From: Kofleriaceae bacterium
GTDB lineage: Bacteria > Myxococcota_A > Polyangia > Haliangiales > Haliangiaceae
DNA: 19,824 bases
Direction: 5' to 3'
NCBI GenBank assembly: GCA_046597055.1
Contig: JBKJLC010000207.1
Span: 1 to 19,824 of the forward strand
A program made the translations under genes and the position numbers. Positions 108 to 19,824 of this stretch are shown here, in pieces. Within the stretch, counting starts at the first letter, position 1. Each line of letters begins with the position of its first letter. Under the pieces are notes generated by a model. That model saw only the letters and a program-made list of their open reading frames with translations. It ran no database searches and was not told the origin of the DNA.

Positions 108-169
108 GCCGCTGCCGCTCGCTGCTGCCGCTCGCGCTGCTGCCGCTGCTGCTCGCGCTGCTGCTGCTG
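108..169. repeat. Low-complexity GCT/GCCGCT/GCTCGC tandem tract downstream of the SUKH-TPR gene
   Basis: Seen directly: gccgctgccgctcgctgctgccgctcgcgctgctgccgctgctgctcgcgctgctgctgctg. No convincing gene covers it. Confidence 0.6.
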
Positions 170-197
170 GCGACCCGCGTCGCCGCGTCGCGCGAGC

Positions 198-2602: not shown

Positions 2603-3678
2603 GGCGAGCCTCCGCCGGCGCCGCGGTCGAGCGGCCACAGCTCCTTGATGCGGCGGTGGATGATCTGGCCGAGCGCGGCGACGTCGTCGGTCGACGAGCA
2701 CTGGCTCTTGCCGCAGGTGATCAAAACGACCAGCCCGCGCTGGCCGTCGAGGAAGGAGACGCCGTAGATCTCGTTCTCGATCGCGCGCAGCGAGCGCGAT
2801 GCCATCTCGTCGCGCTCCTCGACGCCAGGCAGGCCGGTGCGGAGCTCCTCGTAGCGCTCGAGCGCGGCGCCCGGATCGAGGCGCCACAGCCGGAGCGCGA
2901 TGTCCCAGCTCTCGTTGCGGCCGAGCGCCTTGAAGTGCTGCGACGAGTAGGTCGCGGTGTCGGGCTCGTCGCCGAGCGGACCGGTCTCGAAGCTGCCGTC
3001 GTACTTGGTGCGGCCCTTGATGTCGTCGGGCGCCAGCAGCTGAGCCGCGACGATGTAGGGCCCCTGGCCCGCGACCGGCAGGCCAGGGCCGGGGCCCTTG
3101 GTCGGATCGAGCTCGGCGATCGCCGCCTCGCCCTCCCACGCGGTCACCGCCGCCACCGCAGCGCCACCACCGACGAACCGGACGTGGCGGGCGTGCGAGT
3201 ACTCGGGGCGCCATCGCTCGAGCTCGACCTGGTTCTCGCGCTGGGCGAAGTCGCGACGAGCCCCGAAGTCGGCGAAGCGCCGGTCGCTGCGGTAGGCGAC
3301 GAAGCTGCGCTTGTAGATGACGAGCTGGAAGTCGACGACCCGTGCGCCGGCCTTGACGGCCGGCATGGCCGGGATGAGATAGCGACCGGAGGCGTCGGTG
3401 GAGGCGACCGCCTCGGCGTACCCGGCGGCGACCCCGAACGAGCCGGCATCCTGGAGCGTCCAGGTCGCGTAGATCATCGCGCCGGCGACCGGTGACCGGT
3501 TGGCCGCGTCGAGCACGCGGCCGGTGAAGGGACCCCGCAGGTCACCCGGCGACACGGCGTCGGGGCGGCTGCGGAAGGGCGCCGTGCGAGGAGCCACGGC
3601 GAGCGGACGGCAGCCAGCCACCAGCACCAGGAGGGCGATGGCGGCCAGGAGCCGAGAGGTGGCGGGGAGCGCGGTCAT
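2599..3678 (-). CDS. Lipoprotein with a carboxypeptidase-regulatory-like (prealbumin-fold) N-domain, 359 aa
   Basis: MTALPATSRLLAAIALLVLVAG-C lipobox; FTGRVLDAANRSPVAGAMI...STDASGRYLI is typical of this domain. C-terminal domain not recognised. Confidence 0.75.
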   Translation of the reverse strand: MTALPATSRLLAAIALLVLVAGCRPLAVAPRTAPFRSRPDAVSPGDLRGPFTGRVLDAANRSPVAGAMIYATWTLQDAGSFGVAAGYAEAVASTDASGRYLIPAMPAVKAGARVVDFQLVIYKRSFVAYRSDRRFADFGARRDFAQRENQVELERWRPEYSHARHVRFVGGGAAVAAVTAWEGEAAIAELDPTKGPGPGLPVAGQGPYIVAAQLLAPDDIKGRTKYDGSFETGPLGDEPDTATYSSQHFKALGRNESWDIALRLWRLDPGAALERYEELRTGLPGVEERDEMASRSLRAIENEIYGVSFLDGQRGLVVLITCGKSQCSSTDDVAALGQIIHRRIKELWPLDRGAGGGSP

Positions 3679-3850
3679 TCGACGGTGGGGCGCGGTCTTA
3701 TCAGGACCGTCGGCAGCATGCAAACGACCCGGGACTGCCCGGACGCCCAGATCGGCGCGGGCGCGCCGGATCAATGTCGAGGTCCATGTCGAAGGACCGC
3801 ACGTGCGCTTCATTCGGACGCAGGCCTGGTCTACCGTGGGTGTGGTCGCG

Positions 3851-5215
3851 ATGCGCTGCTCGAAGTGTGGTCACGATAATCCGCCGGGCTCGAGCTTCTG
3901 CTTGCAGTGCGGAACGTCGCTGATGGCGCCCATGGGCTATCCGGGACAGACTCCCGGCGCTGCGCCGGGGTTGCCCGCGACGTGTCCCACCTGCCGCACC
4001 GACAACCCGCCGGGCATGCGGTTCTGCCGCAACTGCGGCACGGTGCTCGGGGGCGCACAGGGGCCGGGAACCCCGCCGCCGTACGGCCCACCGCCTGGGG
4101 TCGTGGCCGGCTCGATCGGCGGCAGCCCGGGCTCCGCGCCGGTGCCGCTGGGCTATCCGATCGGGCCCCCGCCGATGGGGCCCCCGATGGGCCCGCCGCC
4201 GATGGGCCATGGGATGCCCCCGATGGGCGGTCCGCTCGGCCCGCCGCCGCCGATGGGCCCGCCCGTTGGCACCGGCCCCGGCATGGGCCAGGTGGGCGGC
4301 TACGGGGCGATCGGGTCGCCGCCGCCCGGCATGCCGGCGGTGTGCCCGCGCTGCAACGCGCCGACCCAGGCCGGCTTCGCGTTCTGCCAACAGTGTGGGT
4401 TCCGCCTGACCGCCGGCGCACCGCCCGCGCCGGGCAACCACGTCGACGCCCAGGGCGCGACCCTGGCCGCGCCCAACCTGGCCGCCGCGCAGCTGCGCCC
4501 GGCCGCCGCGCCGGTGGCGTCGGCGTCGACGCCGCCGTCAGGGCCCGCGACCGCACCATCGCCCAGCTGGGGTGTCGCGGTCTCGGTCAACCGCGACGGC
4601 ACCGATGGTGAACGCTTCCCGCTCGCCGCCGAGTACGTGGTGGTCGGGCGCGCCGGCGCTGACATCGCGTTCGATCAAGACCGGTTCCTCGCCCGCCAGC
4701 ACGCCCGCCTCGAGCTCGCCCCCGACGGCACCTGCCGGGTGGTGCCGATCGACACGCTGAACGGCGTGTTCCGCAAGCTCGACGCGCCGATCGACCTGCC
4801 CGCGGGCTCGATCCTGCTCATCGGTCGCGAGGTGCTGCGGTTCGAGCTGGTCGAGGCCGACGAGCGGGTCGGTGAACCCCTGGTCCGCCACGGGGTCGCC
4901 CTGTTCGGCTCGCCGCCGCGCGCGCCGTGGGGACGCCTGCTCCAGCTGCTACCCTCGGGGGGCGTGCGCGACGTCCGCCACCTGTGGGACGACGAGATCA
5001 CGGTCGGCCGCGAGGAGGGCGATCTGGTCTACTCCGACGACGCGTTCCTGTCGCGCCGACACTGCACGATCGGCTGGGACGGGAGCCGCGCCGTGATCAC
5101 CGACCTCGGCAGCTCGAACGGCACGTTCATTCGCCTCGCCGGGCCCGCGCCGGTGCGATCCGGCGAGCACGTCCGCATGGGCGACCAGCTGTTCCGGATC
5201 GAGCTCCGTCGCTGA
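3851..5215 (+). CDS. Triple zinc-ribbon, Pro-rich, double-FHA protein, 454 aa
   Basis: ATG at 3851. Three CxxC-x9-FCxxCG ribbons (CSKC/FCLQCG, CPTC/FCRNCG, CPRC/FCQQCG). Two FHA domains (VGRAG...ARQH...NGVF; VGREE...SRRH...SSNGTF). Confidence 0.9.
   Translation: MRCSKCGHDNPPGSSFCLQCGTSLMAPMGYPGQTPGAAPGLPATCPTCRTDNPPGMRFCRNCGTVLGGAQGPGTPPPYGPPPGVVAGSIGGSPGSAPVPLGYPIGPPPMGPPMGPPPMGHGMPPMGGPLGPPPPMGPPVGTGPGMGQVGGYGAIGSPPPGMPAVCPRCNAPTQAGFAFCQQCGFRLTAGAPPAPGNHVDAQGATLAAPNLAAAQLRPAAAPVASASTPPSGPATAPSPSWGVAVSVNRDGTDGERFPLAAEYVVVGRAGADIAFDQDRFLARQHARLELAPDGTCRVVPIDTLNGVFRKLDAPIDLPAGSILLIGREVLRFELVEADERVGEPLVRHGVALFGSPPRAPWGRLLQLLPSGGVRDVRHLWDDEITVGREEGDLVYSDDAFLSRRHCTIGWDGSRAVITDLGSSNGTFIRLAGPAPVRSGEHVRMGDQLFRIELRR
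4160..4265 (+). repeat. PPMG coding repeats inside the FHA protein
   Basis: ccgatggg recurs, encoding GPPPMGPPMGPPPMGHGMPPMGGPLGPPPPMGPP (five PPMG units). Confidence 0.75.
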
Positions 5216-5220
5216 CAGCT

Positions 5221-6342
5221 GTGCGTCGGGCCGTGGTCCACGCCTCGTCCCACATCGGTCGCGTCCGCGACCGGAACGAGGACGCGTTCCTGATCGGCGA
5301 CCTCGACAGCGGCGATCCGTGGGAGGGCGGTGCCGAGCTGACCTGCGAGGGCGCGCGCGGCCCGTTCGCGGTCGTGTGCGACGGGATGGGCGGCGCCGCT
5401 GGCGGCGAGGTCGCGTCCGACCTGGCCGTGCGCACCACCTGGCGCGAGATGCGCGAGGCCCACGCCACCGACGATCCCGAGGTGTTCGCGCGGATCCTGC
5501 GCCGCGCGGTCCGCGCCGCCAACCAGCGCGTGCACGACGAGAGCGAGCGCGAGCCGACCCTGCGCGGCATGGGCACGACGCTATCGGCGGCGGGCGTAGC
5601 CGGGCACCACCTGGTCCTCGCGCAGGTCGGCGACTCGCGGGTCTACCTCCACCGCGCCGGCGTCCTCACCCAGGTCACGCGCGATCAGACGCTGGCCCAG
5701 GCGCTGGTCAACGCCGGCCGCATGAGCGAGGCCGAGGCCGAGGCCAGCGTCGGCGCCGCGACCATCCTGCAGGCGCTCGGGGTCGGACCCGACGTCGAGC
5801 CCTCGTTGTCGCTGGTCGCGCTGCGCCAGGGCGACCGGGTGCTGCTGTGCTCGGACGGGCTCTACAACCAGCTGGGCCCGTCGACGATCCAGGCGATCGT
5901 CGACGGCCGCCGCGGGCCGAGCGCGCTGGCGCAGGCGCTGTGCGACGCCGCGTGCGCCGCCGGGGGCCACGACAACATCACCGCGGTCGTGATGTTCCTC
6001 GACGGCGACGCGCTGCCGGCGCCGGCCAGCACCGACGAGGCGCCGCGGTTCGTCGAGTTCGACCCGCGCGAGGAGGGCGAGCGCGCCCTCACCTCGACCT
6101 CGTACGTCGCGCGCCGGCTGGCGGCGCGCGCCGGCGTCGGCAACGATCCGGGCCCGCCGGTGCTGCCGGCCACCGGCCAGCACGCGATCATCCCGCGCGG
6201 GCGGCTCGCGCCCGGCGTCTCGATGACGGACCTGGCCGGGCCCGCGTCGCGTCAGATATCCGCCAGCCGGACCCATCTCCTCTGGTTGGTCGTCGCGGTG
6301 GTCATCGCCGCCGCGATCGGCTGGTGGCTGGCCGGTCACTGA
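5221..6342 (+). CDS. PP2C (PPM)-family Ser/Thr protein phosphatase with C-terminal TM anchor, about 373 aa
   Basis: GRVRDRNED, VCDGMGG, QVGDSRVY, LLCSDGL and GGHDNIT motifs; ends LLWLVVAVVIAAAIGWWLAGH. Start taken as GTG 5221, 5 nt after the previous stop (uncertain by a few codons). Confidence 0.93.
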   Translation: MRRAVVHASSHIGRVRDRNEDAFLIGDLDSGDPWEGGAELTCEGARGPFAVVCDGMGGAAGGEVASDLAVRTTWREMREAHATDDPEVFARILRRAVRAANQRVHDESEREPTLRGMGTTLSAAGVAGHHLVLAQVGDSRVYLHRAGVLTQVTRDQTLAQALVNAGRMSEAEAEASVGAATILQALGVGPDVEPSLSLVALRQGDRVLLCSDGLYNQLGPSTIQAIVDGRRGPSALAQALCDAACAAGGHDNITAVVMFLDGDALPAPASTDEAPRFVEFDPREEGERALTSTSYVARRLAARAGVGNDPGPPVLPATGQHAIIPRGRLAPGVSMTDLAGPASRQISASRTHLLWLVVAVVIAAAIGWWLAGH

Positions 6343-6367
6343 CCGGGGGGCCGCGCGGGCCCGCGGG

Positions 6368-6370
<3 letters not shown>
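6340..6370. terminator. Imperfect hairpin between convergent PP2C and kinase genes
   Basis: TGACC...GGGCC-gcgcg-GGCCC...GGTCA spans both stop codons; no U tract. Confidence 0.35.
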
Positions 6371-7918
<1,548 letters not shown>

Positions 7919-7966
7919 CCGATTGGATTCTCTCCCAACTCTGTGCCGTGCGCACCTGTTACCCGG

Positions 7967-8431
7967 TCAAAGCGCCAGCGTCACCGCCACGATCAGCCCG
8001 ACGATGACAGCGAAAGCGATCACGGCGAGCACGCGCCACCTCGGTGCGCTGCGGCGCGGAGCGTCGAGGACCGGGGCCGGCAGCGCCTGGGCAGCGGCGG
8101 CGTCGCCGACGAACAGCCGGATGCGCGGACCGCCAGCGCCGAACTCGACGACGATCGGGGTCGCCAGCGCCACCGTGGTCTCGGTGATCCGGTGGCCGTC
8201 GACGAAGGTGCCGTTCGAGCTGCCGACGTCGACCAGCAGCCAGCCGTCCTCGGTCCGCCGCAGCTCGGCGTGGCGCGACGACGCGTCGATGTCGCGGTGG
8301 GCGTCGAACGACACCTCGCAGTCAGGGTGACGGCCGAAGCGCACCTTGCGCTCGGCCGACAGCTCCTGGCGCTGCCCGCGCCGGGAGCCGGCCAGGTGAT
8401 CGACGATCACGGTGAGGGACTCGCCCGCCAC
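7967..8431 (-). CDS. Small FHA-domain protein with C-terminal TM anchor, about 154 aa
   Basis: FGRHPDC...ASSRHAEL...DVGSSNGTFVDG; ends WRVLAVIAFAVIVGLIVAVTLAL. Start is GTG 8431 (TACCCT 9 nt upstream) or GTG 8449. Confidence 0.9.
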   Translation of the reverse strand: MAGESLTVIVDHLAGSRRGQRQELSAERKVRFGRHPDCEVSFDAHRDIDASSRHAELRRTEDGWLLVDVGSSNGTFVDGHRITETTVALATPIVVEFGAGGPRIRLFVGDAAAAQALPAPVLDAPRRSAPRWRVLAVIAFAVIVGLIVAVTLAL

Positions 8432-8458
8432 GGGTGGGTCAGGGTACACGCGGCTCGA

Positions 8459-10162
8459 TCATGGCGCCAGCGCCGCGCGGACGCCGGCCTCGAGCCCGGG
8501 GTCGTCGGCGCCGAGCTCGAGCCAGCGCCGCCAGGCGGCCTCCATCGCCGCGCGATCGCCGCGGGCCTCGGCGAACGCGCCGCTCTGCACCAGCGCCTCG
8601 GGCAGGCTGGGTGCGTCGGTCAGCGCGCGCGCGACGTGCTCGAGCGCCCGCGGACGATCGCCGGGCCAGGCGGCGCGCGCCCGTCGCAGCGAGGCCCGCG
8701 CCGCGCGCACCGCGGCGACCTGCTGGACGTCGGCGGTCGGATCGGCCGGGATGTCGGCCGGCGGGATCGGTCGATCGCCCTCGCCGAGCAGCTCGTGGCG
8801 CAGATCGAACGCGCGCATGCGCGCGCCGGCGCCGGGGCCGTCGGCGACCCACATCGCCAGCGAGGCCGGATCGAACAGCACGACGTGGACCGCGCTGGCG
8901 TCGTCGAGCGCCGCGCGATGTCCGAGCGGCAGGCCTTCGTCGCTGGTGCTGCGCCGATCGCGGAGCACCGCGGCCGCCGCGGCGGCGTCGACCGGCGGCG
9001 TGCGCACCAGCTGCTCGGCGCGCGCGACCCGGGCCAGCGTGGTCGAGATCCGGCGGGTGCGATCGTTTTCGGGATCGTCGGCGAACGCCGGCGACATCAG
9101 CACGTCGCCGACCGCCCGCTCGGGCGGATCGCGGCGGACGCCGACCTTGGTCGGGCTGCGCTCGACGACGGCCCACCGGCCGCGCGCGCCGTCGACGAGC
9201 ACGAACGCGGCCGCGCCCAGGGTCGGCGTGGCCTCGATCAGCTTGATCGCGGCGTCGAGATCCTCGGCCAGCTCCAGCACGTCGCGCGCGAGCAGCGCGG
9301 CCGGGCGCGCCGCCACCGTCGTCCGCACGTCGCGGGTCGCGGTCGGGTGCACGGTCACCACCAGGCCACGCGCGTTGATGCCGGTGACCACGCCGGCCAG
9401 GCCAGCCCAGCCGACCCCGGCCCACGCGATCCGGCCGGTCGGCCGCACCAGGCTGATCACCGGCCGGGCCTCGGCGTCGCCGCCGTCGCCGAGGCCGGGC
9501 AGGGCCAGCGCGTGGCCTGCCCACAGGCGGCCGGGCGTGGCCTGGGGCGCGACCCAGGTCAGGCTGCGCGCCAGCCGGCGGCTGTGCGCCTCGGCGGTCC
9601 ACCGCGCCGGCACGCCGACGTCGAGCACCGCGGCCTGGCGGATCAGATCCTGGAACGAGCTGGCCACGCCGCTGGCGCCCGCGCCGCGGACCGTGCCGGC
9701 GATCGCGCGCCGATGGCCATCGGGCACGCCGTCGTCGACGAACCGCAGGCGCCAGTCGAGGCGCATGCGGCGGGTCCATCCGAACCAGGCCCCGCTGCCG
9801 GCGACGCCATCGATGGTGGGCCGGAACGCCTGCGCGACCGCGGGCAACCGCTCGGCGAGCAGGCGGCCATGCGCGGCGCCGATCGCGAACGGCTCGCCGC
9901 TGGCCCGCACCACCGCCAGGTCGCCGGCCATCGCCAACGACGCGTCGCCCCAGCGCAGCCGCGGGGCGGCGCCCGGGGTCGGCTGGTCGAGCACGATCGC
10001 CGCGCGCGCCGGCTCGCCGCCGGGCACGTCGTAGACGACCGAGCGCCGGTAGATGAACCACGCCACGACAAACGCCGTGACCACCAGCACGACGAGCATG
10101 AACACCGCGCGCAGGGCGCGCTGCGGCGAGTGGCGCTTGCCGCCGATCACGAGATCCGCCAT
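8459..10162 (-). CDS. Membrane-anchored peptidase C45 / acyltransferase-like Ntn-hydrolase homologue with a C-terminal TPR; catalytic motifs atypical, 567 aa
   Basis: N-terminal TM; SGEPFAIGAAHGRLL, VGWAGLAGVVTGINARGLVV, LLARDVLE...AIKLI, HVVLFDPASLAMWV resemble C45 proteins; C-terminal ALTDAPSLPEALVQSG...WRRWLEL is TPR-like. Confidence 0.8.
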   Translation of the reverse strand: MADLVIGGKRHSPQRALRAVFMLVVLVVTAFVVAWFIYRRSVVYDVPGGEPARAAIVLDQPTPGAAPRLRWGDASLAMAGDLAVVRASGEPFAIGAAHGRLLAERLPAVAQAFRPTIDGVAGSGAWFGWTRRMRLDWRLRFVDDGVPDGHRRAIAGTVRGAGASGVASSFQDLIRQAAVLDVGVPARWTAEAHSRRLARSLTWVAPQATPGRLWAGHALALPGLGDGGDAEARPVISLVRPTGRIAWAGVGWAGLAGVVTGINARGLVVTVHPTATRDVRTTVAARPAALLARDVLELAEDLDAAIKLIEATPTLGAAAFVLVDGARGRWAVVERSPTKVGVRRDPPERAVGDVLMSPAFADDPENDRTRRISTTLARVARAEQLVRTPPVDAAAAAAVLRDRRSTSDEGLPLGHRAALDDASAVHVVLFDPASLAMWVADGPGAGARMRAFDLRHELLGEGDRPIPPADIPADPTADVQQVAAVRAARASLRRARAAWPGDRPRALEHVARALTDAPSLPEALVQSGAFAEARGDRAAMEAAWRRWLELGADDPGLEAGVRAALAP

Positions 10163-10301
10163 GAGCGCGCGGAGCCTACGCCGGTGACGCCCGCCCGGCT
10201 ACCTCGGCAAGACGGTGTCGGTCGGTGTCGGTGCGAGCGTGCGTCGGGTCATGGTCGCGATGCCGCGCCGCCGGGAGTGCGGTGACACCCTGACGAGAGC
10301 G

Positions 10302-10331
10302 TTGCTCGCGAACGGCGCGGTTTGGTAGCGT
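10302..10331 (+). promoter_or_regulatory. Putative sigma70-type promoter
   Basis: TTGCTC-18 nt-TAGCGT with extended -10 TG at 10323-10324; favours ATG 10360 over GTG 10330 as the start. Confidence 0.5.
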
Positions 10332-10359
10332 GGGTGACGCGCGCTGGCGCGGACGACGT

Positions 10360-10965
10360 ATGGTCCTGGCTACCCAGATCGCGAACGCCGGCGCCGGCGC
10401 GCTCGACCTCGCGAGATGGGGGCTCGGCGGCGCGCTCGTGCTGCTCGCGGCCGGGCTGACCGCGCTGGTCGTGGTGTTGACCCGGCGGCAACGCAAGCCG
10501 GCGCCACCGCCGCCGGCGCCGGTCGAGGTGCGCCCGGTCGTGCGGCGCCCGACGCCACCGCCGCGGCCGGCACCGACCCGGCCGCCGGTCGCGTTCGGCG
10601 GGGGTGGGCTCGCGGTGGCGAGCTCGGGCCTGGTGTGCCCGACCTGTCGCACCGAGTACAGCGGCGTGACCTACTGCCCGCGCGACGCGCGCCGGCTGGT
10701 CGCCGCCGAGGAGATGCTCGCGGGTGCCCGCAGCGCCGGCGGCATGTGCATGTCGTGTGGTCGCGCGTTCGAGCCTGGGCTCCGGCGCTGCCCGCACGAC
10801 GGCGCCGAGATCGTGCTGGCCGCGCTGTACCTCGCTTCGCGGCGGCGGCGCGACGCGGCCCCGACCGGCGTCATGGCCAAGGTGTGTCCGGTCTGTCGCG
10901 ACCAGGCCGATCTGTCGGCGCGGTTCTGCGGGCGCGACGGTCACGAGCTGGTCGTCGTGAACTGA
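10360..10965 (+). CDS. Single-TM protein with Pro-rich linker and three zinc-ribbon-like motifs, 201 aa
   Basis: TM WGLGGALVLLAAGLTALVVVL followed by RRQRK; CPTC-x9-CPRD, CMSC-x9-CPHDG, CPVC-x9-CGRDG. Confidence 0.8.
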   Translation: MVLATQIANAGAGALDLARWGLGGALVLLAAGLTALVVVLTRRQRKPAPPPPAPVEVRPVVRRPTPPPRPAPTRPPVAFGGGGLAVASSGLVCPTCRTEYSGVTYCPRDARRLVAAEEMLAGARSAGGMCMSCGRAFEPGLRRCPHDGAEIVLAALYLASRRRRDAAPTGVMAKVCPVCRDQADLSARFCGRDGHELVVVN

Positions 10966-11039
10966 GCGACACCGGTTGAGCTCGCAGATGTGATGTGCGC
11001 ACGCGGCCGTCAGCCGACGACCGCTGTATGATCCTCAGA

Positions 11040-11675
11040 ATGCGCCCAGGCCTGCCGCTCGTGATCGCCGCGTCGCTCGTCCCTGCCGTCGCCTCCGCCG
11101 ACGTGCTCAGCCTGCGGGTCGAGGCGCAGGGTGGCGGCTCGGGCGGGGTCGGCCTGGCGGGCGATCGCAAGGACGACGCGTTCTCCGAGGGCGCGCGCGG
11201 ACCGGCATACGGCGCGCTGCTCGGGGCCGAGATCCTGTTCATCGACGCGTGGATCGAGCATCGCCAGACCCGGGTCGACGGCGCGGTCGCGACCTGGACC
11301 CAGTTCATGACCGGCCTCGATCTCGACATCCCGCTGGGCACGCCCGACCAGGCGCCCGACGCCACCTCCGCGCCGCGGCCGCGTGGCTACGCCGAGCTCG
11401 GGCTTGGATTTGGCTTCGGCGTCGGCACCGGCCAGCAGGTCGTGCTGCCGCTCGACAACGGCGAGATCACCGACAAGGGCTTCCTCGCCGAGGCCCGGCT
11501 CGGCGCCGGCATCCATCTCGGTCCGGTGCTGTCGCTCGGCGTGGTGGTGCCGGTCAGCGCCGGTTACTACTTCAAGAGCGGCGCCGGCGTGGCCGCCAAC
11601 GACCTCGGCACCCACTATCAGGCGATCCAGGCGGCCGCGCTGGTGAACCTGCGCTTCCGGATCAAGGTCAAGTAG
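11040..11675 (+). CDS. Exported protein, probable outer-membrane beta-barrel, 211 aa
   Basis: Signal peptide MRPGLPLVIAASLVPAVASA; alternating amphipathic strands (GYAELGLGFGFG, GFLAEARLGAGIHLG, ALVNLRFRIK). TATGAT lies 7 nt before ATG 11040. Confidence 0.65.
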   Translation: MRPGLPLVIAASLVPAVASADVLSLRVEAQGGGSGGVGLAGDRKDDAFSEGARGPAYGALLGAEILFIDAWIEHRQTRVDGAVATWTQFMTGLDLDIPLGTPDQAPDATSAPRPRGYAELGLGFGFGVGTGQQVVLPLDNGEITDKGFLAEARLGAGIHLGPVLSLGVVVPVSAGYYFKSGAGVAANDLGTHYQAIQAAALVNLRFRIKVK

Positions 11676-11685
11676 CGCACCGACC

Positions 11686-11712
11686 CGCGCGCTCGACCGG
11701 CGTCAGCGCGCG
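11686..11712. terminator. Hairpin between convergent genes
   Basis: CGCGCGCT(c)GAC-cggc-GTC-AGCGCGCG; no U tract. Confidence 0.45.
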
Positions 11713-12324
11713 CTACCGGGCACCGTCGTCGTAGATCGTGATGATGTCGTAGCCGCGCGGCGTGTCGCGCTGGCTGTAGACCAGCGCCAGGCTGCCCCGA
11801 CCGCCCGCGCAGCGGATCGCGACGACGCCGCCGCGCGCAAGCTCGGCGTTGATCTGCACCCGCAGCGGCTCGTAGGCCTCGTGGCCGGGCGGCAGCGGCT
11901 CGAACGCCAAGCCCAGCCGCTGGTTGTACTTCCAGCGCGGCGGGCCGGCGGTGCAACCGCCGGTGCCGACCGTGCGCTGGGCGAGCAGCTGATAGAACCG
12001 CGACACGTTGCGGCGCTCGCGCTCGGCCGGGTAGGGCGTGCCGTCGTCGCGCTCGAGGTCGGCCCGCTCTTCGTCGGTGAGGTCGGTCAGGCGGCCGAGC
12101 AGATCGTAGCGACGCAGCAGGATCTCGAACCCGCCCACGGTGGCGAAGTCGAACAGCTCGACCCACGCCGCCTGGCTGGCGAGCGTCGTGGTCTCGAAGT
12201 CGTACACGACCTGCGCGGGCAGCGCGGCCGGCCGCGGCGCGCGCGCCGGTGCCTTGGGCCCGCAGGCGGTCAGCGCCGCCAGCAGCGCCAGCCCGGCGAC
12301 TCGGCGCACACCGCCCCGCCGCAT
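11713..12324 (-). CDS. Lipoprotein of unknown function, 203 aa
   Basis: MRRGGVRRVAGLALLAALTA-C lipobox; start overlaps the ferritin-like gene stop (TGATG at 12322-12326); two further Cys. Confidence 0.8.
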   Translation of the reverse strand: MRRGGVRRVAGLALLAALTACGPKAPARAPRPAALPAQVVYDFETTTLASQAAWVELFDFATVGGFEILLRRYDLLGRLTDLTDEERADLERDDGTPYPAERERRNVSRFYQLLAQRTVGTGGCTAGPPRWKYNQRLGLAFEPLPPGHEAYEPLRVQINAELARGGVVAIRCAGGRGSLALVYSQRDTPRGYDIITIYDDGAR

Positions 12325-13223
12325 CAGGCCTCCGCCGCCGCCATCCACGCGTCGCCGTACTCATCGGCGACGTCGCCACACGGGATGCCGAGCGCCTCGA
12401 AGCCGGGCACCAGCACCTCGCGCACGCACGCCGCGAAGATCACGCGCTCCTCGGCCGGCGTCATCAGGCCGTGACCGCGCACGGCCTCGGTGACCTCGCC
12501 CACCGGTCGCTCGCGCTCGACCACGTTGGCGTTGCCGCGCAGCGCGATCGGCACCATCTTGGCGGCCGCCTCGATCGCGCCGGCGCCACCGACGTCGATC
12601 GCGTGGCGCAGGTACGACCAGCCGAGCCGGGCGTGCATGACCTCGTCGGAGTAGATCGACGTCAGCACCTCCCGGGCGGCCGGATCGAGCGTCAGATCGC
12701 GGGTCGCGGTCAGCACCGTGGTCGCGTACGTCTCGCTCACGCACGACACCAGCAGGGTGTTGGCGACCGCCTGGTGCAGCCTGGGCCGGGTCGGCTCGTC
12801 GGGCAGGCTCGACATGCCCGACGGCGGCTGGATGCGGCGGCCGCTGTAGATCTCGACCATGCGCAGGCACAGCTCGGCGTGGCGGACCTCGTCGATGCCG
12901 GCGCGCATGCACAGCGACAGCACGTCGGCCGGCGCGCCGGCGGCGACCAGATCGATCGCGAGCACCGCGAACGTCGACACCGCGAGGTACTCGGCGGCGG
13001 CCCGGCGCTCCCAGGTGCCGGCCAGCCGCTTCCGTTCGTCGGCCGTCAGCGCGGCGGCGGTGCTGCGCTCCCACGGAATCGGGACCTGGCGGCGGCGCAT
13101 CAGCCGCTGGTGCTCGGCCTCGAGCGGGGTGCCCGACAGCCACCAGGCGCTGACCGGCTCGAACACGTCGTCGACGATGTCGGCGACCGCGGCGGAGGAG
13201 ACAGCCTGATCGTTCATGACCAT
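12324..13223 (-). CDS. Ferritin-like di-metal (di-iron) carboxylate protein, 299 aa
   Basis: Ligand order E (AAAEY)...DEVRH...E (SCVSET)...DEVMH; no signal peptide; start overlaps the upstream stop (TGATG at 13221-13225). Confidence 0.88.
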   Translation of the reverse strand: MVMNDQAVSSAAVADIVDDVFEPVSAWWLSGTPLEAEHQRLMRRRQVPIPWERSTAAALTADERKRLAGTWERRAAAEYLAVSTFAVLAIDLVAAGAPADVLSLCMRAGIDEVRHAELCLRMVEIYSGRRIQPPSGMSSLPDEPTRPRLHQAVANTLLVSCVSETYATTVLTATRDLTLDPAAREVLTSIYSDEVMHARLGWSYLRHAIDVGGAGAIEAAAKMVPIALRGNANVVERERPVGEVTEAVRGHGLMTPAEERVIFAACVREVLVPGFEALGIPCGDVADEYGDAWMAAAEA

Positions 13224-13903
13224 CAGCTCAGGATGAAGCCGCGACCGGTGGCGCGGACCTTCTGGACCCGTGGGCGCGGCGCCGGCTGGATGATCGACGT
13301 CACCGCGAGCACCTGTGAGGTACGCGTCTTGTCAGCGCCGACGAACTTGATCGTCAGCGCCTTGCTGGTCGCGCCGACCTTGGCCGGCGCGGTGAACACG
13401 GCCTTGATGAGGCCCTTGCCGCCGGCCGGGATCGCCTGCTTGGGCGGGGTCGCGACCAGGCAGGCGCACGAGCTCGTGATCATCTTGCGATCGATCGTCA
13501 CCGGGGCCGTGGTGGCGTTGGTGAAGGTGAACTCGACGGTCTTCTTGCTACCGGCGACCACCGTCCCGAGATCGAGCTCGGGCTGATCGAACGTCACCGG
13601 CGGCGTGAGTGGCCGCGGCACCGGGGGCCCGGGTGGCGGCGCCGGCTTGCGGGCAGCGCCTCCGGCCTGGGCGACCCGGAGCGGCCGGCCGATCGCCGCG
13701 GCGACCTCGGCCGCTGTGGTCGCGGTGGGCGAGCTCGCGATGGGCGGCTCAGCGTAGGGTCCGGCCAGCGCCGGCCGCGCCACGTACGTGGATCCCAGCA
13801 TCGCACCGGCGACGACGACGGTGCGCCAGGTCCGCCGGTTGGCGGCGCTGGAGAGCTCGACGGAATCGGACAGGAAGCGAGCGAGCGCGGTGCGTTGCGA
13901 CAT
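13223..13903 (-). CDS. Exported DUF1573-like (Ig-fold) protein with a TGRGFILS C-terminus, 226 aa
   Basis: GGGGA before ATG 13903; signal-like NRRTWRTVVVAGAMLGSTYVARPALA; DLGTV...FTFTNATTAPVTI...SSCAC...IPAGGKG matches the DUF1573 pattern; ends RPRVQKVRATGRGFILS. Confidence 0.8.
   Translation of the reverse strand: MSQRTALARFLSDSVELSSAANRRTWRTVVVAGAMLGSTYVARPALAGPYAEPPIASSPTATTAAEVAAAIGRPLRVAQAGGAARKPAPPPGPPVPRPLTPPVTFDQPELDLGTVVAGSKKTVEFTFTNATTAPVTIDRKMITSSCACLVATPPKQAIPAGGKGLIKAVFTAPAKVGATSKALTIKFVGADKTRTSQVLAVTSIIQPAPRPRVQKVRATGRGFILS
13229..13250. repeat. 22-bp exact repeat, copy 1 (in the TGRGFILS tail)
   Basis: caggatgaagccgcgaccggtg is identical at 14057-14078. Confidence 0.95.
13797..13812. 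repeat. 16-bp exact repeat, copy 1 (in the AGAML signal motif)
   Basis: agcatcgcaccggcga is identical at 14265-14280. Confidence 0.9.
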
Positions 13904-13932
13904 GGTCCCCCGGAGTCGGACGTGCGACGACG

Positions 13933-13961
13933 CCGCGCGACCAGGCCCCTGGTCGGCGCGG
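13933..13961 (-). other. Intergenic stem-loop between the two TGRGFILS genes
   Basis: CCGCGC-GACCAG-gccc-CTGGTC-(g)-GCGCGG. Confidence 0.55.
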
Positions 13962-14050
13962 ACGATCGAATGAGATGGCTGACGGCGCCCATGACGTGAC
14001 ACGCCGGGCCGCCCCAGCAACCCGGTCGACGTCAGCTCCGCAGCCGTGAA

Positions 14051-14329
14051 TCAGGACAGGATGAAGCCGCGACCGGTGCTGCCTTCGTCGCTCACACCAC
14101 GCGCGCGGCCACACGGGTCGGCACACGGATCGGCGTCCTGCGAGGGGCTGCACGGGTTGACCTGCTGGTCGGGGCCGCACGGGTCCTGCTCGGTCGGGGC
14201 CGTGACCTCGGCCGGCTCGGGGGTCGTCGTGACCGGCGCCGTCTTGGAGGCGCAGGCGCTGCCGAGCATCGCACCGGCGAACACGACGGTCTTCCAGATG
14301 GTCTGCGTTGCTTCGCGACGAAGGTTCAT
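14051..14329 (-). CDS. Small probable lipoprotein or precursor peptide with four [DN]PC repeats and a TGRGFILS C-terminus, 92 aa
   Basis: MNLRREATQTIWKTVVFAGAMLGSA-C; Pro/Thr linker; DPCG, NPCS, DPCA, DPCG; ends RARGVSDEGSTGRGFILS. Both termini are homologous to the neighbouring gene, and a clear promoter precedes it. Confidence 0.85.
   Translation of the reverse strand: MNLRREATQTIWKTVVFAGAMLGSACASKTAPVTTTPEPAEVTAPTEQDPCGPDQQVNPCSPSQDADPCADPCGRARGVSDEGSTGRGFILS
14057..14078. repeat. 22-bp exact repeat, copy 2
   Basis: Identical to 13229-13250. Confidence 0.95.
14265..14280. repeat. 16-bp exact repeat, copy 2
   Basis: Identical to 13797-13812. Confidence 0.9.
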
Positions 14330-14335
14330 GAAAGC

Positions 14336-14364
14336 AGATTACGAGCGTGGTGGGGTCGGTTCAA
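14336..14364 (-). promoter_or_regulatory. Sigma70-type promoter giving a leaderless mRNA for the 92-aa gene
   Basis: Minus strand reads TTGAAC-17 nt-TAATCT-6 nt-ATG. Confidence 0.75.
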
Positions 14365-14422
14365 GCCCCAAGCCACGATCAGCGGCTGTGCTTCTTTCGA
14401 ATCTCACCCTCCCTTCGATCGG

Positions 14423-14450
14423 TCGGGCGCGGCCCGGAGGCCGCGCCCGA
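14423..14450 (-). terminator. Perfect 12-bp GC hairpin downstream of the Fe-S/cNMP gene
   Basis: Minus strand TCGGGCGCGGCC-TCCG-GGCCGCGCCCGA, a C(UCCG)G UNCG-type tetraloop; no U tract, so it could instead be REP-like or an mRNA stabiliser. Confidence 0.6.
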
Positions 14451-14486
14451 TCTGTACGGAACGAGAGCCGCCTCGCTTCGCTCGGC

Positions 14487-17354
14487 TCAGCGCGGCGGCG
14501 CGGCCGGCCACGTGCTCGAGGCACCGGCCGTGGTCGACGCGAGCATCATGCCGCGCATGCGCTTGACAAGCTCGGCGATGATCACCTGCGACATCTCGGG
14601 GCGCTGATCGAGCAGCGCCTTGAAGTCGTCGCCGGGCAGTACCAGCGTGCGGGTCCGCTCGACCGCGCGGACCGTCGCCGACCGAGGCGCGGCATCGAAC
14701 ACCGCCATCTCGCCGATGCACGCGCCGGGGCCGAGCTCGGACAGGATGCGCTCGGGCCGGTCGCCGGAGCCACCGGTGAACACTTTCACGCGGCCCTTCA
14801 CCATCAGGAACACGGCGTCGCCGGCGTCGCCCTCCGCGCACAGATCCTGGCCCTCGGTGAAGTGGCGCTCGACCACGACCTCGGCCAGCTCCTCGAGATC
14901 GTCGGGGGCCAGCCCGGCGAACATCGGGACCTGCCGGATCAGCATGAGCTTCTCGATCTCGCTCAGGGTCTCGACCCGCGCGTTGGCGTCGAGGGTCGCG
15001 AACACCCCGGCGTTACCCACGCCCTTGACGGTCTGGGCCATCGCGCCGGCGTCGCTGGCCGGGTGTTCGCCGGTGCTGCCCCGGGCGACCGCGCGCACCG
15101 CCGCCGAGCGCACCCGGGGCTCCTTGTCGGCCAGCGCCTTCTGCATCAGCTCGCGGGTCAGCCGCGAGCGTGCACCGAGCGCGCGGACCGCGGCCTGGCG
15201 CACGTTGCCGTCGACGTCGTCCATCGCCGCTACCAGCGCCGCGCGCGAGCCGTCGTCGTCGAAGCGCGACAGCACGATCGCGACCGCCGCCCGCAGGTAG
15301 CGCGAGCCGTCGCCGGCGACCGCGAGGAACGGCGCCGGCTCGAACGGCGCCGCGGCGTGGCCCCACAGCCGCTCGAGCGCGGCGTGGAGCGCGCGCACCA
15401 GCTCGTCGGGCGCGGTGCCGCGCAGCGCGTGGACCTGGGCGACCGCGGTGCGCGGCCGGGCCGTGATCGCCTCGCGGGCCCGCTCGATCTCGTCGCGCTG
15501 GGCGATCGCGCCGAGCAGGCCGAGCGCGCGGCCGGTGTGCTGGGTGCCGCGCCAGCGCGCGACGTGCGCGACGAAGCCGAGCGTCGCCGACTCGTGGCCG
15601 GTCGGATCGTCGACATGGGCCGCCCGCGCCACCGCGGCCAGCCGCTCGATCGCGGCGATCTCTGCCTTCGCGAACGCCACCACCGGCCCGTCGGGGCCGA
15701 GCAGGCGGGCCGACTCGGCGGCGTGCTCGTCGTCGCCCACGCCGTACTCGGCGCGCAGCGCAGCGACCGCCGCGGCCGAGGCCGCGGCGCCGGTGCGGCC
15801 GGCGTCGACCACCAGCCGCTCGAGCTCCTTGCGGTACTGCTGACCCTTGAGCCGCTGCTCGACCGAGCCCTGGTAGGCCGGATCGAACAGCTGCTTCTCC
15901 TCGGCCGACAGCTCGCCGACCAGCTTCTGGTGGTCCTTGTCGGTGATCCCGAGCTGCGCGCGCAGGCTGTCGAGGATCACCAGCTCGGCCCGGGTGATCA
16001 AGCCGTCGGCGACCAGCTCGCGCACGGTCTCCTTGTAGGCGCGCAGCCGGGCCTCGCGCTGCTTGGTGCGCTCGGTGTGCAGCAGGTAGATGTCCGACAG
16101 GTCGTCGGACGGGGGCGCGTCGCCCCACTCCCAGCGCTTGAGGATCTTCTGCGCGAACTTCTCCTGGACGTACTCGGCCTCCTTGCGCCGGAACCGGCGG
16201 AAGAAGATCGCGGCCGACGCGAACACGACCGCCACGCTCCAGCCCTGGACCGCCCAGCCCGGCAGCCGTTGCAGACTCGGCTGGCCGGCGAAGAAGTAGA
16301 AGCAGTTGAACGCGACGAAGCCGGCGACCACCAGCAGCTGGTGGCGCAGACGGTTGCGAGCCTCGACCCCGGCCTGCGCGGTCGGGTCGAGCCCCTTGCC
16401 GACGCGCCGCCACGCCAGCCGCTCGACCCCCGTGAACAGCGCGAACGAGATCGCGCCGGCGCCGACCAGGGTCAGCGGTGCCGCCACCACCCGCGGGATC
16501 GCCGGCGCGAAGTGAAAGCCCGGGTCGAGCCAGGTCGACGGCTGGGTGGTCTCGTACGCCCACGCCCCCGAGAAGTAGTAGTCCCAGCTGCCGGCGTAGA
16601 GCCAGTAGTAGACGTAGAACGCGACCACCACGCCCGGCCACGCGAAATAGACCAGCCGGCGGCCGCGCTCAGGCATCTCTTTCCAGTAGCCCTGCTCGAG
16701 ATCGATGTCGGGGCAGTGCTTCTTGCACGCGACGCACGGCGCGCACTGCGACGTCTGCTCGTTCGCTGCCGAGCCACGCGCGGGCTCGGTGTATATCTTC
16801 TCGACGAGCCCGACCGGGCACAGGAAGTTGCACCACGTCTTGCCGCCGAACACGAAGCTCGTGACGATCGCCGCGAGGATCACGACACCGAGGAAGCCGG
16901 CGAGCCACACGTCGCTACCGTTGGTCGCCACGAGCCGCAGCGTGAGCGCGACGAGCATGAAGCCGAGCTGAACGAGCACGTAGTTCTTGCTCATCCAGTC
17001 GCCCATCTTCCGCGTGCCCGGCCGGCCGAACAGACGGCCGAGCTGGCCCATCACCGCGAGCGGACACAGCCGCCGCCACAGGTGATAGCCAAACGTCATC
17101 CAGAAGAACGGCAGCGCCGCGATCGCGACCGTCCACAGCAGCCGATTGCCGTGGCGGAAGCCGAGGATTGTCGGGATGGTCGCCGCGAACGCCAGCACCA
17201 GCACGATGCGCGAAGCGGTCGCCCACTTCGGTGCGGTGCCGCCGTCGGTGAACGCTGCCCAGCCGCCGGCCCGCGCCTTCTCTGCCTTGCCCGCGGGCTT
17301 GCCGTCCGCGATCGGGAGCTTCTTCTTCTCGGGCTTGGCGGGTGCGGCGCTCAT
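14487..17354 (-). CDS. Membrane Fe-S (NapH/RdxA-like) protein fused to HEAT repeats and a C-terminal cNMP-binding domain, 955 aa
   Basis: About 8 TM segments with WRRLCP, WCNFLCPVG and CAPCVACKKHCP; HEAT-like DVDGNVRQAAVRALG and DKEPRVRSAAVRAVA; cNMP domain EGDAGDAVFLMVKGRVKV...IGEMAVFDAAPRSATVRA. Confidence 0.88.
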   Translation of the reverse strand: MSAAPAKPEKKKLPIADGKPAGKAEKARAGGWAAFTDGGTAPKWATASRIVLVLAFAATIPTILGFRHGNRLLWTVAIAALPFFWMTFGYHLWRRLCPLAVMGQLGRLFGRPGTRKMGDWMSKNYVLVQLGFMLVALTLRLVATNGSDVWLAGFLGVVILAAIVTSFVFGGKTWCNFLCPVGLVEKIYTEPARGSAANEQTSQCAPCVACKKHCPDIDLEQGYWKEMPERGRRLVYFAWPGVVVAFYVYYWLYAGSWDYYFSGAWAYETTQPSTWLDPGFHFAPAIPRVVAAPLTLVGAGAISFALFTGVERLAWRRVGKGLDPTAQAGVEARNRLRHQLLVVAGFVAFNCFYFFAGQPSLQRLPGWAVQGWSVAVVFASAAIFFRRFRRKEAEYVQEKFAQKILKRWEWGDAPPSDDLSDIYLLHTERTKQREARLRAYKETVRELVADGLITRAELVILDSLRAQLGITDKDHQKLVGELSAEEKQLFDPAYQGSVEQRLKGQQYRKELERLVVDAGRTGAAASAAAVAALRAEYGVGDDEHAAESARLLGPDGPVVAFAKAEIAAIERLAAVARAAHVDDPTGHESATLGFVAHVARWRGTQHTGRALGLLGAIAQRDEIERAREAITARPRTAVAQVHALRGTAPDELVRALHAALERLWGHAAAPFEPAPFLAVAGDGSRYLRAAVAIVLSRFDDDGSRAALVAAMDDVDGNVRQAAVRALGARSRLTRELMQKALADKEPRVRSAAVRAVARGSTGEHPASDAGAMAQTVKGVGNAGVFATLDANARVETLSEIEKLMLIRQVPMFAGLAPDDLEELAEVVVERHFTEGQDLCAEGDAGDAVFLMVKGRVKVFTGGSGDRPERILSELGPGACIGEMAVFDAAPRSATVRAVERTRTLVLPGDDFKALLDQRPEMSQVIIAELVKRMRGMMLASTTAGASSTWPAAPPR

Positions 17355-17355
17355 C

Positions 17356-19128
17356 CTAATTTGTAAACGGGCAGGTCAGTCCCTTCGCCGCATCCGCGGT
17401 GAGGAACTGCGCGTAGTTCAGTTTTGCCCGGCACTCCTGGTGCTTGAGGAACTCGAGCGTGAACTCCTCCCAGTGCGTCGACGGGACGATCTGGAAGTTG
17501 AGCGTGGCGATCTTCTTGTTCGGGTTCCTCGGAACGCCCTTGGTCGGATCGGTATTCGACGGATCGGAGTAGTCGTGCATGCCGAAGTTGCGGATGTGGC
17601 ACTGCGAGCAAGTCATGCCGTTCTCTTCACCGACGTCGCGGCGGCCGTCCTCGAGCGCGAGGTTCGCGACCATGAACTTGGTCTTGTGCTCGATGTAGAG
17701 GTGGTTGGAGTCGATCCGGCCGCCCTTGACCTTGTCCCCGGTCAGGTCCGGCAGATCGACGAAGCCGAGCGTCTTGCGACACAGGATCTCGTGGCCCGGT
17801 GCGAGCTGCTTGTCGCCCTTGGTCCACCGCGGTCCGCAGGTGGGAACCCAGGCCTTCTTGTCCTCGGACGGCACCGTGTGCGTCCAGAAGCCGGGGATGA
17901 TCACGTTGGTGTACTGCTGCGTCGTGCCCTCGGACGTGATGAACGGCTTCTGCGCGCTCCAGCCCCAGCCATCGCCGTGCTTGTACGTGCCGTCAGGATT
18001 ACGCGCGGAACCTCCGCCCATGCGTGCCTCGAGCGCGATGCCGATCGCGAACGTCTTGAGGTACGGCGCGGTCTTCGTGTCGTCGTACGCCATCAGCTCG
18101 GTCATGAACGCGCCGACTGCCTTGCTGTGCTGGGCCTGATTCTTGAGAAACTTTTCGCTCGGTGCGCCGTTGTCGAGGAGGTGCTTCGCAACGAGGCCGA
18201 GGAACACCTTGTTGTTCGCGGTGCGCTCCTCGGCGGGACGTGGCAGTGCGGGCACGAACTCCGTGACCGGACGGATCCGGAACATCGCGAACACCGGTTC
18301 GGGAGCCTTGATCGCCTGATAGACGACGCGAAGCTCGGTCCACGCGCGATCGATCCGCGGCCGGATCGTCACGATCTTCCACGCCTTCGGATCGCCGAAC
18401 ACGGCCTTGTCGAACTCGGGCGCCTTGGGATCGAGTCGCGGGTTGCCGTGCGTCTGCGCGAACGCGGACAGGAAGCCGTCGAACAGCACGGCCTTGTCGA
18501 GCTTGCCGGTCAGCGCCGCCGCCTTGTCCGCGGCGAACTGCGGTTTGAAGCCTTCCGCGGCGACGAGCAGCAGCCTGTCGAGCGGCCAGTCCTTGTTGAC
18601 CTGCTCGAGCCGCTTGGTCTGCCGGATCATCAACACCGTCTCGATCACCGCAGACTTCTGCTCGGCGACCGGTACGGGCTGCTTTTTCGGGGTGACCTCG
18701 AACGTCCAGGTCACGGACTCCGAGCCTTTGCGTGCGGGCTGGGTGACGAACAGCGTGAAGTCCGCGCTCGGCATGTCCGCCTTGGTCGGCGTCCACGTCA
18801 CCGTCTGCGTGATCGCATCGAACTTCGCGGACGCTGGCATCTTCGTCACTTCGACGCGCGTGTCGTCGAGGTCTTGATCGATCGCGGTCGTCGCGAAGCT
18901 GATCGTCTGGCCCACGCCGACCTTCTTGATCTGGGGCTCGAACAGCTCGGGCGGCCGATCCGCGGCGGCCGGCGGCTCAGGCGTCGGCGGCTCGGGCGGC
19001 GTGAGCAGCGTGGCGGTGTCGGAGCCCGCGGATCCGGGACCGGGCGGCGGTGCCGGCGTCTTGCCGCCACACGCGTGGGTCGTCAGCGAAACCAAGCCGA
19101 GCAGAACGAAGCCTCTAGCATTCCCCAT
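17356..19128 (-). CDS. Lipoprotein with an Ig/cadherin-like domain and one CxxCH motif (putative c-type cytochrome), 590 aa
   Basis: [20 protein letters not shown], Pro-rich tether, [15 protein letters not shown]...[18 protein letters not shown] near the C-terminus; stop is 1 nt from the next start. Confidence 0.75.
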
Positions 19129-19137
19129 GCGTCGGGC

Positions 19138-19158
19138 ATCGTACCACCATGCTAGCTT
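19138..19158. promoter_or_regulatory. Back-to-back extended -10 elements in a 40-bp divergent gap
   Basis: Minus strand TG-G-TACGAT is 9 nt before ATG 19128; plus strand TG-C-TAGCTT is 10 nt before ATG 19169. Confidence 0.6.
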
Positions 19159-19168
19159 CCGCTCGCCG

Positions 19169-19824
19169 ATGACGACCGACCTTCCGACGCTCGCGATCAA
19201 CACGATCCGTACGCTGGCGATCGATGCCATCCAGAAGGCGAACTCGGGTCACCCGGGATTGCCACTCGGCTGCGCACCGATGGCGTACACGCTGTGGCAA
19301 CGCCACCACAAACACGATCCGAAATCGCCGCACTGGTTCGATCGCGATCGGTTCGTGCTGTCCGCCGGTCACGGCTCGATGTTGCTCTACTCGCTCCTCC
19401 ATCTCACCGGATACGAGCTCTCGCTCGAAGAGATCAAGAACTTCCGGCAGTGGGGCAGCAAGACACCGGGCCACCCCGAGTGGCAGCAGGGCGACCATCC
19501 CGGCGCTGCGCACGAGACGCCCGGCGTCGAGGCGACCACCGGTCCGCTCGGTCAGGGCGCGGCAAACGCGGTCGGCATGGCGATCGCCGAGAAGTACCTC
19601 GCGAAGCACTTCAACCGGCCCGGCCACGACGTGATCGATCACTTCACCTACGCCCTCGTCTCCGACGGCGACGTCATGGAAGGCGTCGCGTGCGAGGCCG
19701 CCAGCATCGCGGGCCACCTCGGGCTCGGCAAGCTGATCTATCTGTACGACGCGAACCAGGTCACGCTCGACGGTCCCCTGTCGCTCGTGATGTCCGAGGA
19801 TGTCGGCGCCCGCTACGCCGCTTC
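19169..19824 (+). CDS. tkt: Transketolase, 5' part (runs off the window; absent from the ORF track)
   Basis: Hand translation: [34 protein letters not shown]...[25 protein letters not shown]...TPGHPE...TTGPLGQG...SDGDVMEG...[15 protein letters not shown]. Confidence 0.97.

Follow-up and report, generated by a model that had tools for sequence, protein, structure and literature searches.

The closest described relatives of the system reported here are the DAG-RiPPs (DybA/DybH; MelA1/MelH), peptides made on the ribosome and modified after translation (RiPPs) in which a cargo of up to protein size combines an N-terminal lipoprotein or secretion signal with a short conserved C-terminal motif, and in which a signal-less non-heme iron enzyme acts before export (PMC13056109; statements on this paper and on PMC11626156, PMC12452194 and PMC13108848 refer to the portions of them available to us). 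Similarly, a Sec signal peptide stands in the place of the leader in bufferins and oxazolins; their authors suggested that the modifying complex keeps this peptide masked until the modification has been completed (PMC11626156, PMC12452194). There is thus a precedent for a logic of signal, tag and modification prior to export (PMC13056109, PMC12452194). We describe here a cassette that appears to follow this logic with another enzyme. It lies on the reverse strand of a 19,824-nucleotide stretch, hereafter the window, of a Kofleriaceae bacterium (assembly GCA_046597055.1, contig JBKJLC010000207.1, positions 1 to 19,824), and encodes two doubly tagged precursors (A and B), a ferritin-like di-iron enzyme (C) and a lipoprotein (D):

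14051-14329, reverse strand: precursor A, a lipoprotein of 92 amino acids with a signal-peptide leader, a lipobox at Cys26, a [DN]PC-repeat core and an RAR-x7-TGRGFILS tail.
14261-14299, reverse strand: residues 11-23 of A, its leader motif, predicted to be the helix that chiefly docks on enzyme C, from the logo and the complex model.
14054-14077, reverse strand: TGRGFILS tail of A, from the tail pattern search and the complex model.
13223-13903, reverse strand: precursor B, 226 amino acids, with an A-type leader, a Pro-rich linker, a DUF1573 Ig-like domain (residues 103-192) and an RPR-x6-TGRGFILS tail.
12324-13223, reverse strand: enzyme C, ferritin-like di-iron protein of 297-299 amino acids without signal peptide, with ligands E76, E110, H113, E162, E192 and H195.
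11713-12324, reverse strand: lipoprotein D, 203 amino acids, with a distantly NTF2-like alpha+beta model, the dedicated third component.

Compared with these systems, the cassette retains the conserved C-terminal motif on a variable core and replaces the enzyme. DAG-RiPP enzymes are TIM-barrel MNIOs (DUF692) that act on the motif CPxCGxG, whereas a di-iron protein with a ferritin-like four-helix fold takes their place here and the motif is free of Cys; in addition, the signal peptide itself is strongly conserved here and a dedicated partner lipoprotein is present (PMC13056109). Neither the MNIO/DUF692 TIM barrel nor a Cys-containing CPxCGxG motif was found in the cassette, and the words "ferritin" and "diiron" do not occur in the main text of PMC13056109. 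Bufferins and oxazolins depend on an MNIO with a DUF2063/RRE partner acting on Cys, whereas C itself is predicted to bind the signal peptide (PMC11626156, PMC12452194). A Pfam search of C gave no match to DUF692.

Portable C-terminal tags on unrelated exported proteins, each with a dedicated processing enzyme, are also represented by the PEP-CTERM, MYXO-CTERM and GlyGly-CTERM signals. Unlike these, the GRGFILS tail has no transmembrane helix, is preceded by basic residues and comes with a matching N-terminal tag; moreover, CTERM processing is performed by a membrane protease, whereas the partner here is a metalloenzyme of cytoplasmic type. No NCBIfam model of the PEP-CTERM/MYXO-CTERM type matched A, B or 48 aligned precursors, and the protein ends three residues past the tail Phe, in agreement with an earlier reading of the window made from the sequence alone (the sequence-only reading), which did not recognise the tail among such known signals and saw no transmembrane segment in it.

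The leader W[RK]TVV[VF]AGAMLGS is common to A and B, as is a tail in which RxR is followed by seven (A) or six (B) residues and then by TGRGFILS and the stop codon. Their cores are unrelated: that of B matches DUF1573 (Pfam, E 2e-17), and A has no match in Pfam or NCBIfam. The sequence-only reading had pointed out this common format and the TGATG overlaps that couple B to C and C to D, and both are borne out by the window sequence. The same two-tag format, IW[RK]TVVxAGAML at the N-terminus and RxR-x(7-10)-GRGF[IV]L[SA]-stop at the C-terminus, surrounds cores of at least five unrelated types in 94 distinct precursors, namely DPC repeats, DUF1573, PEGA (verified in 4/4 precursors tested), Ala/Lys/Glu-rich stretches and Gly/Ser repeats. 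Because these precursors were picked by patterns for both tags, the logos of the selected tags are partly circular; RxR was not a selection criterion, and it is present in 92 of the 94, mostly 7-10 residues ahead of the tail with Gly-rich spacing. A Cys lies within 14 residues past the leader in 79/94 precursors, and 15/94 have no lipobox cysteine yet keep both tags, the lipobox being judged by pattern and not by SignalP. Among 48 aligned A-type precursors, I11, V15, V16, G19-G23, C26, R75, G86-F89 and L91 are invariant (48/48), so that these carry a lipoprotein signal with its lipobox cysteine; B has none. A twin-arginine (Tat) interpretation of the leader was set aside, as many precursors have no RR (MNGATKTIW, MKATKTIW, MARNVTNDIW). 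Precursor genes with Gly/Ser repeats at L015/L107 and L069 seem to be frameshifted, which parts the leader from the tail; the repeats were probably misassembled.

The tail is not a product of chance, since exactly 4 of the 111,557 stop-bounded six-frame segments of this genome (G000) end in GRGF[IV]L[SA] and all four stand beside an enzyme of type C. Two of them are A and B; the others lie on contig C166, where neighbouring genes encode a D homologue and a 79%-identical enzyme. With matrices derived from 90 precursors outside this genome, the same four segments came out on top for the leader (44-66 bits, next 17) and for the tail (30 bits, next 12). The C166 copy (G000:C166:35380-43384, L001) is syntenic with the cassette region over about 8 kb at 66-75% DNA identity and probably results from contamination; it was not counted as an independent duplication, given that its enzyme falls in another clade, that the synteny with C52 spans housekeeping neighbours and that G000 is 7.55% contaminated.

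In a set of 61 genomes, this one and 60 relatives, close C orthologues (E<1e-90) occur in 22, and all 41 places that match the tail pattern fall in these 22 genomes, while the 39 remaining genomes have no such place; a single one of the 41 closes with TGG instead of a stop codon. Lipoprotein D is present in exactly the 22 genomes that have enzyme and tail, and the reversed pattern, taken as a control, gave 10 scattered matches over the 61 genomes. The tail extends beyond A and B and, in these 61 genomes, never occurs without the enzyme, contrary to two outcomes that the sequence-only reading had named as refuting it. The 22 genomes are kin, from three families of one order, and their co-occurrence is therefore no statistical test. 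Linkage was followed at 56 loci, mostly from metagenome-assembled genomes of Kofleriaceae, Myxococcales or Deltaproteobacteria and overlapping with the 61-genome set. A tail lies at most 400 bp upstream of the enzyme gene in 47 of the 50 loci with more than 600 bp of upstream sequence, and D lies downstream in 54/54 loci with more than 500 bp of downstream sequence; the three exceptions for the tail are L069, which has the variant GRGVALS, and L062 and L089, which have no adjacent tagged gene. A further 17 tail places that do not directly adjoin the enzyme gene, in trans or distant, were examined: the leader is present at 13, the contig ends too early at 3, and L040 has no leader and a chimeric look, so that the leader is present in 13/14 evaluable genes. 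In other genomes, relatives with the B architecture are encoded apart from the enzyme gene (L032, L033, L045, L046). In a sample of 351 genomes of the phylum, close C orthologues were found in G000 and G015 alone, and the 5 tail matches outside close relatives, none with a leader, equal the 5 control matches; the strict system is confined to one order in the sampled genomes. Within that order, the association of the two tags, the enzyme and D is real and conserved.

The sequence-only reading had described C as a signal-less ferritin-like protein with a full ligand set, and its ligands (E76, D109-E110xxH113, E162, D191-E192xxH195) proved invariant in 26/26 aligned orthologues. The structure model is all-helical (pLDDT 84), and its closest fold match is the PaaC-like protein 4mud (Z 18.9, root-mean-square deviation 2.6, 208 aligned residues), followed by PaaA (Z 17.4), MMOH (17.3), the Mn/Fe protein R2lox (16.3), aldehyde-deformylating oxygenase (ADO, 15.8) and AurF (12.0), with 9-18% identity to the top oxygenase matches; such a shared fold is a structural likeness and does not show function. 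C thus has the four-helix bundle and the E, ExxH, E, ExxH ligands of ferritin-like di-iron oxygenases (FDOs), the group of PaaA/C, ADO, R2lox, AurF/CmlI and MMOH. Known FDO substrates are small molecules, acyl chains and carrier-bound groups, not tagged ribosomal proteins. Pfam matches of C are weak at best (E 0.013), nothing comes near an NCBIfam cut-off, a sequence search of solved structures gave no close homologue (best natural match E 0.2), Foldseek gave no match at E<=0.001 for C or D, and the ESM Atlas returned mostly unnamed Myxococcota clusters. A role of C as encapsulin cargo was not supported, as the TIGR04535 score of 13.1 bits compares with a cut-off of 125. In G000, whose assembly is 94% complete, no gene for a Family 1 encapsulin shell (PF04454) was found.

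The sequence-only reading had further inferred that the enzyme recognises the tagged proteins and modifies or cleaves them. Recognition gained support from a complex prediction that passed its controls; modification or cleavage of the tail would be a putative further step. For the model, C was entered from residue 15 to 297 with an alignment of 26 rows and precursor A with one of 48 rows, together with two Fe; the score was 0.74 against 0.40 for the best control, a mark reached by 116/157 solved and 2/215 mismatched pairs, rates that apply only roughly to the present case. At least 31% of contacts recur between runs, and partner A has a pLDDT of 44-52. Confident residues of A at the interface are most of 3-21, plus 87-92, the latter with an expected error below 8 Å. 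All 25 lowest-error pairs join the leader, through its residues 11-20, to C residues 163-167, 193-201 and 267-275, where T163, T166, T167, V193, A196, R197, W200, V268 and G272 form a groove. The 48 non-ligand interface residues of C have a mean conservation of 0.90, against 0.74 for the other 213, in an alignment that is the model's own input. In this model the signal peptide is the likely main docking site on C. The tail probably enters the di-iron pocket, since RGFILS touches C and the contact list of C includes the ligands E76, E110, H113, E162 and E192.

A wider view of the family is given by the profile of C, which finds 7,999 clusters at E<=0.001. Clustered at 50% identity, the superfamily numbers about 8,000 such groups and is most frequent in Myxococcota. 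Among the best 149 new profile matches, 70 are at least 340 residues long, and 66 of these 70 are fusions of an N-terminal cargo, a GR[PA][FYLV] motif and the enzyme domain. The motif stands 47-79 residues (mostly 49-53) ahead of the first Glu, with the consensus G-R-P-F-L-V against G-R-G-F-I-L in the tail; a lipobox-like pattern is found in 37/66 fusions, some of which are fragments, and two [DE]ExxH motifs in 62/66. At the distance where precursors have RxR, the fused homologues have CC[YF] instead. One fused paralogue is encoded in this genome, on contig C264. Because 66/70 long homologues carry GR[PA][FYL] in cis, the tail looks like a trans version of that motif. In hhalign, the G29-T-P-L of C itself is aligned to the fused GRPF, which fits the loss of an in-cis Arg now supplied in trans and also fits a structural role. 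Borosins likewise exist as fused enzyme-substrate proteins and as split enzymes with precursors; these are SAM-dependent backbone N-methyltransferases without export signal, and despite the same fused/split pattern their fold is unrelated to that of C. The fused homologues, the trans-encoded substrates and the signal peptide as likely main docking site go beyond the sequence-only reading.

Other arrangements were observed further out in the family. At L113, from the same class and outside the order, a 37%-identical enzyme follows a lipoprotein that carries the leader variant VVRSVVMGAAM and RPR and continues for ten residues past its TRGF; a radical SAM/SPASM-like gene, identified by eye, lies directly upstream (L113:43-1116) and suggests a variant with a second modifying enzyme. 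More distant ferritin-like paralogues stand behind small lipoprotein-like genes or are fused via GRPL, on G000 contigs C239, C60, C65 and C264 and at L024, L026, L027, L029, L030, L114, L121 and L137. The motifs read there by eye, uncounted, include CCWATTCD, CNPPPP, DGFPLVGN, PRIG repeats, CTPWGPP, AMVLIL, [KR]VG repeats, YAQIAY repeats and EGPLAPP, and these neighbours may constitute a family of candidate precursor classes.

From the observed tags and co-occurrence and the predicted binding, we infer a chemistry, a timing and a role for D that we favour with moderate confidence: C would dock on the signal peptide, delay export and oxidise or cut the precursor at G-R-G-F, after which the precursor would be exported and D would receive its end. 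The conserved signal peptide and the RxR-spacer-GRGF[IV]L[SA] tail on unrelated cargos would form a portable two-part address, as in a RiPP-like maturation. Signal-less C is predicted to bind the signal peptide in its groove, which would hold the precursor from export, and the contact of RGFILS with C may place the tail at the di-iron pocket. The di-iron centre would then activate O2 and oxidise G-R-G-F, possibly with electrons from a 4Fe-4S protein encoded upstream. One possible result is that the backbone is cut oxidatively at Gly-Arg, so that the cargo would keep a modified end, probably an amide; the other is a retained side-chain oxidation of Arg or Phe. We rate the two as roughly equal, with a lean to scission because Gly-Arg is the sole part common to the fused homologues, in which a cut would free the cargo, and because the motif need not be terminal. 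Once released, the precursor would be exported, mostly lipidated, and D may receive or anchor its modified end outside the inner membrane. Mechanisms acting on the C-terminal carboxylate, such as terminal decarboxylation or amidation of the last residue, were down-weighted, as L113 and L048 extend past the motif and the fused motif is internal. Extended to the whole superfamily, which would be an unrecognised one, the proposal becomes tentative, and we regard it as possible rather than probable: fused members would cut themselves at G-R-P-[FYL] and split members would act in trans on G-R-G-F, as oxidative protein-processing modules for an O2-dependent, protease-free C-terminal maturation or sorting with an envelope lipoprotein as receiver.

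Several points weigh against this mechanism. The 25 lowest-error pairs all involve the leader, with no tail-ligand pair among them; hydrophobic signal helices are sticky, one control reached 0.40 and the fold confidence of A is low (44-52). The hhalign match of GRPF to the GTPL of C hints at a possible structural role for the motif; Cys is absent from the tail, and no tagged gene adjoins C and D at L062 and L089. The bufferin signal peptide is dispensable for modification on overexpression (PMC11626156), and no paper on an FDO modifying a ribosomal peptide was found in the literature searched.

One rival reading takes C for an export chaperone or structural partner that binds the signal peptide, the tail completing or regulating it in trans like GRPF and the cargo staying chemically unchanged. 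Signal-peptide-binding helical chaperones exist, namely TorD/DmsD, the best-supported model contacts are those of leader and enzyme, and the fused GRPF keeps a fixed distance from the domain besides aligning with GTPL. We nevertheless consider this unlikely, as it leaves aside the invariance of all six metal ligands, the two [DE]ExxH motifs of 62/66 fusions and the placement of the tail 60-200 residues from the leader on unrelated cargos.

If GRGF[IV]LS were instead a follower (docking) peptide, chemistry could fall on the upstream RxR, for example as Arg hydroxylation or N-oxygenation. The near-constant presence of RxR at a variable Gly-rich spacing of 7-10 residues speaks for such a core, and the HDO SznF is a known di-iron Arg hydroxylase (PMC13108848). 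Against it, residues 75-77 are not among the confident contacts and the fused homologues have CC[YF] at that place; we judge it rather improbable. Alternatively, D or a protease may read the tail as a sorting or anchoring signal outside the cytoplasm, with C acting on a lipid or small molecule, possibly lipoprotein acyl chains or the anchor. ADO, R2lox and desaturases act on such substrates, the proteins structurally near C are enzymes of lipids or acyl-CoA, and D has a slight likeness to MlaC, a phospholipid carrier (E 0.04, Z 5.5-6.5). However, that match is weak and D is absent beside more distant split enzymes, 15/94 precursors without lipobox cysteine keep both tags and the precursor is predicted to bind C, which leaves this explanation at the same low level as the preceding one. 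Finally, a tail that is a duplicated DNA remnant carried in one clade without functional link, as the restriction of the strict system to one order and the nearly identical DNA of the A and B tails might evoke, is very improbable and largely refuted by the synonymous variation of Ser and other codons in the tail among precursors, the persistence of the tags on trans genes with unrelated domains, RPR and RGF kept beside the 37%-identical enzyme, the tail directly upstream in 47/50 loci and the independent matrices.

Regarding D as the putative receiver, its model is confident (pLDDT 92), but its structural matches are weak, the best being to NTF2-like proteins (Z 6.5). No Pfam or NCBIfam family was found for it, and the ESM Atlas gave leads below 0.9. 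The elements surrounding the cassette are the following:

14336-14364, reverse strand: probable leaderless promoter, TTGAAC (14359-14364), a 17-nucleotide spacer and TAATCT (14336-14341), from the sequence.
11686-11712, strand not assigned: GC hairpin between D and the convergent gene, a possible terminator without U-tract (z -1.64).
14487-17354, reverse strand: membrane 4Fe-4S/HEAT/cNMP (cyclic nucleotide monophosphate) protein of 955 amino acids, directly upstream of the cassette, from Pfam.

The sequence-only reading had given the unit its own promoter and a hairpin at each end. The promoter is probable: TAATCT stands 6 nucleotides before the ATG of gene A, and the leaderless type is likely, since TAnnnT at 5-10 nucleotides 5' of the ATG in 52/94 precursor genes fits it; a consensus scan of the window for promoters and terminators found none and missed TTGAAC-17-TAATCT. 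The upstream hairpin, being contained in a dispersed repeat, was rejected as part of the unit, and the hairpin downstream is weak. With 147 nucleotides between them, A and B are only putatively co-transcribed. The dispersed repeat (14375-14500) is an intergenic palindromic REP-like element with copies of 85-94% identity on many contigs of the genome, and a second repeat at 1-167 has copies on C125 and C140.

The 4Fe-4S/HEAT/cNMP protein is encoded upstream of the cassette in 40/47 loci and is present in 20/22 enzyme-bearing genomes against 2/39 others. In the three genomes of other families its gene is on other contigs, and in broken-up cassettes it stays with the DPC-type precursor and not with the enzyme. 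It may be an electron donor (reductase) or a regulator, or perhaps simply reflect shared ancestry. Further upstream, a 624-residue Ig-domain lipoprotein-like gene with CxxCH (17356-19230, reverse strand) forms with it a conserved pair (19 and 40 of 47 loci, respectively), possibly a redox or sensing module. Downstream of D, a convergent gene of 226 codons (10995-11675, forward strand) has the look of an outer-membrane beta-barrel protein without family match and is kept in part of the loci; at 198-10162, genes of FHA-domain, PP2C phosphatase and Ser/Thr kinase-like type, with lipoproteins nearby, were read by eye as a cluster.

The literature searched, outside which most subscription journals fall, yielded no account of this system and no paper containing GRGFILS. 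The review of HDOs separates them from FDOs and mentions ribosomal peptide modification for HDOs alone (PMC13108848). The cassette would represent an apparently undescribed case of a known biosynthetic logic in which another enzyme superfamily acts on a motif of a new kind, functioning like MNIO DAG-RiPPs and bufferins without belonging to them. If the proposed mechanism is true, FDOs would join the enzymes that modify ribosomal peptides and proteins as a new superfamily, with a motif free of Cys as their target, and the thousands of hypothetical "ferritin-like domain-containing proteins" of myxobacteria would gain a candidate function. The system would provide a model for the delay of export until modification, an issue brought up in PMC12452194. 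A leader and a short tail on Ig, PEGA, helical and disordered cargos would constitute a portable tag for site-specific C-terminal chemistry. The evidence suggests that this group of uncultured myxobacteria has a hitherto undescribed route by which proteins are chemically finished ahead of export.

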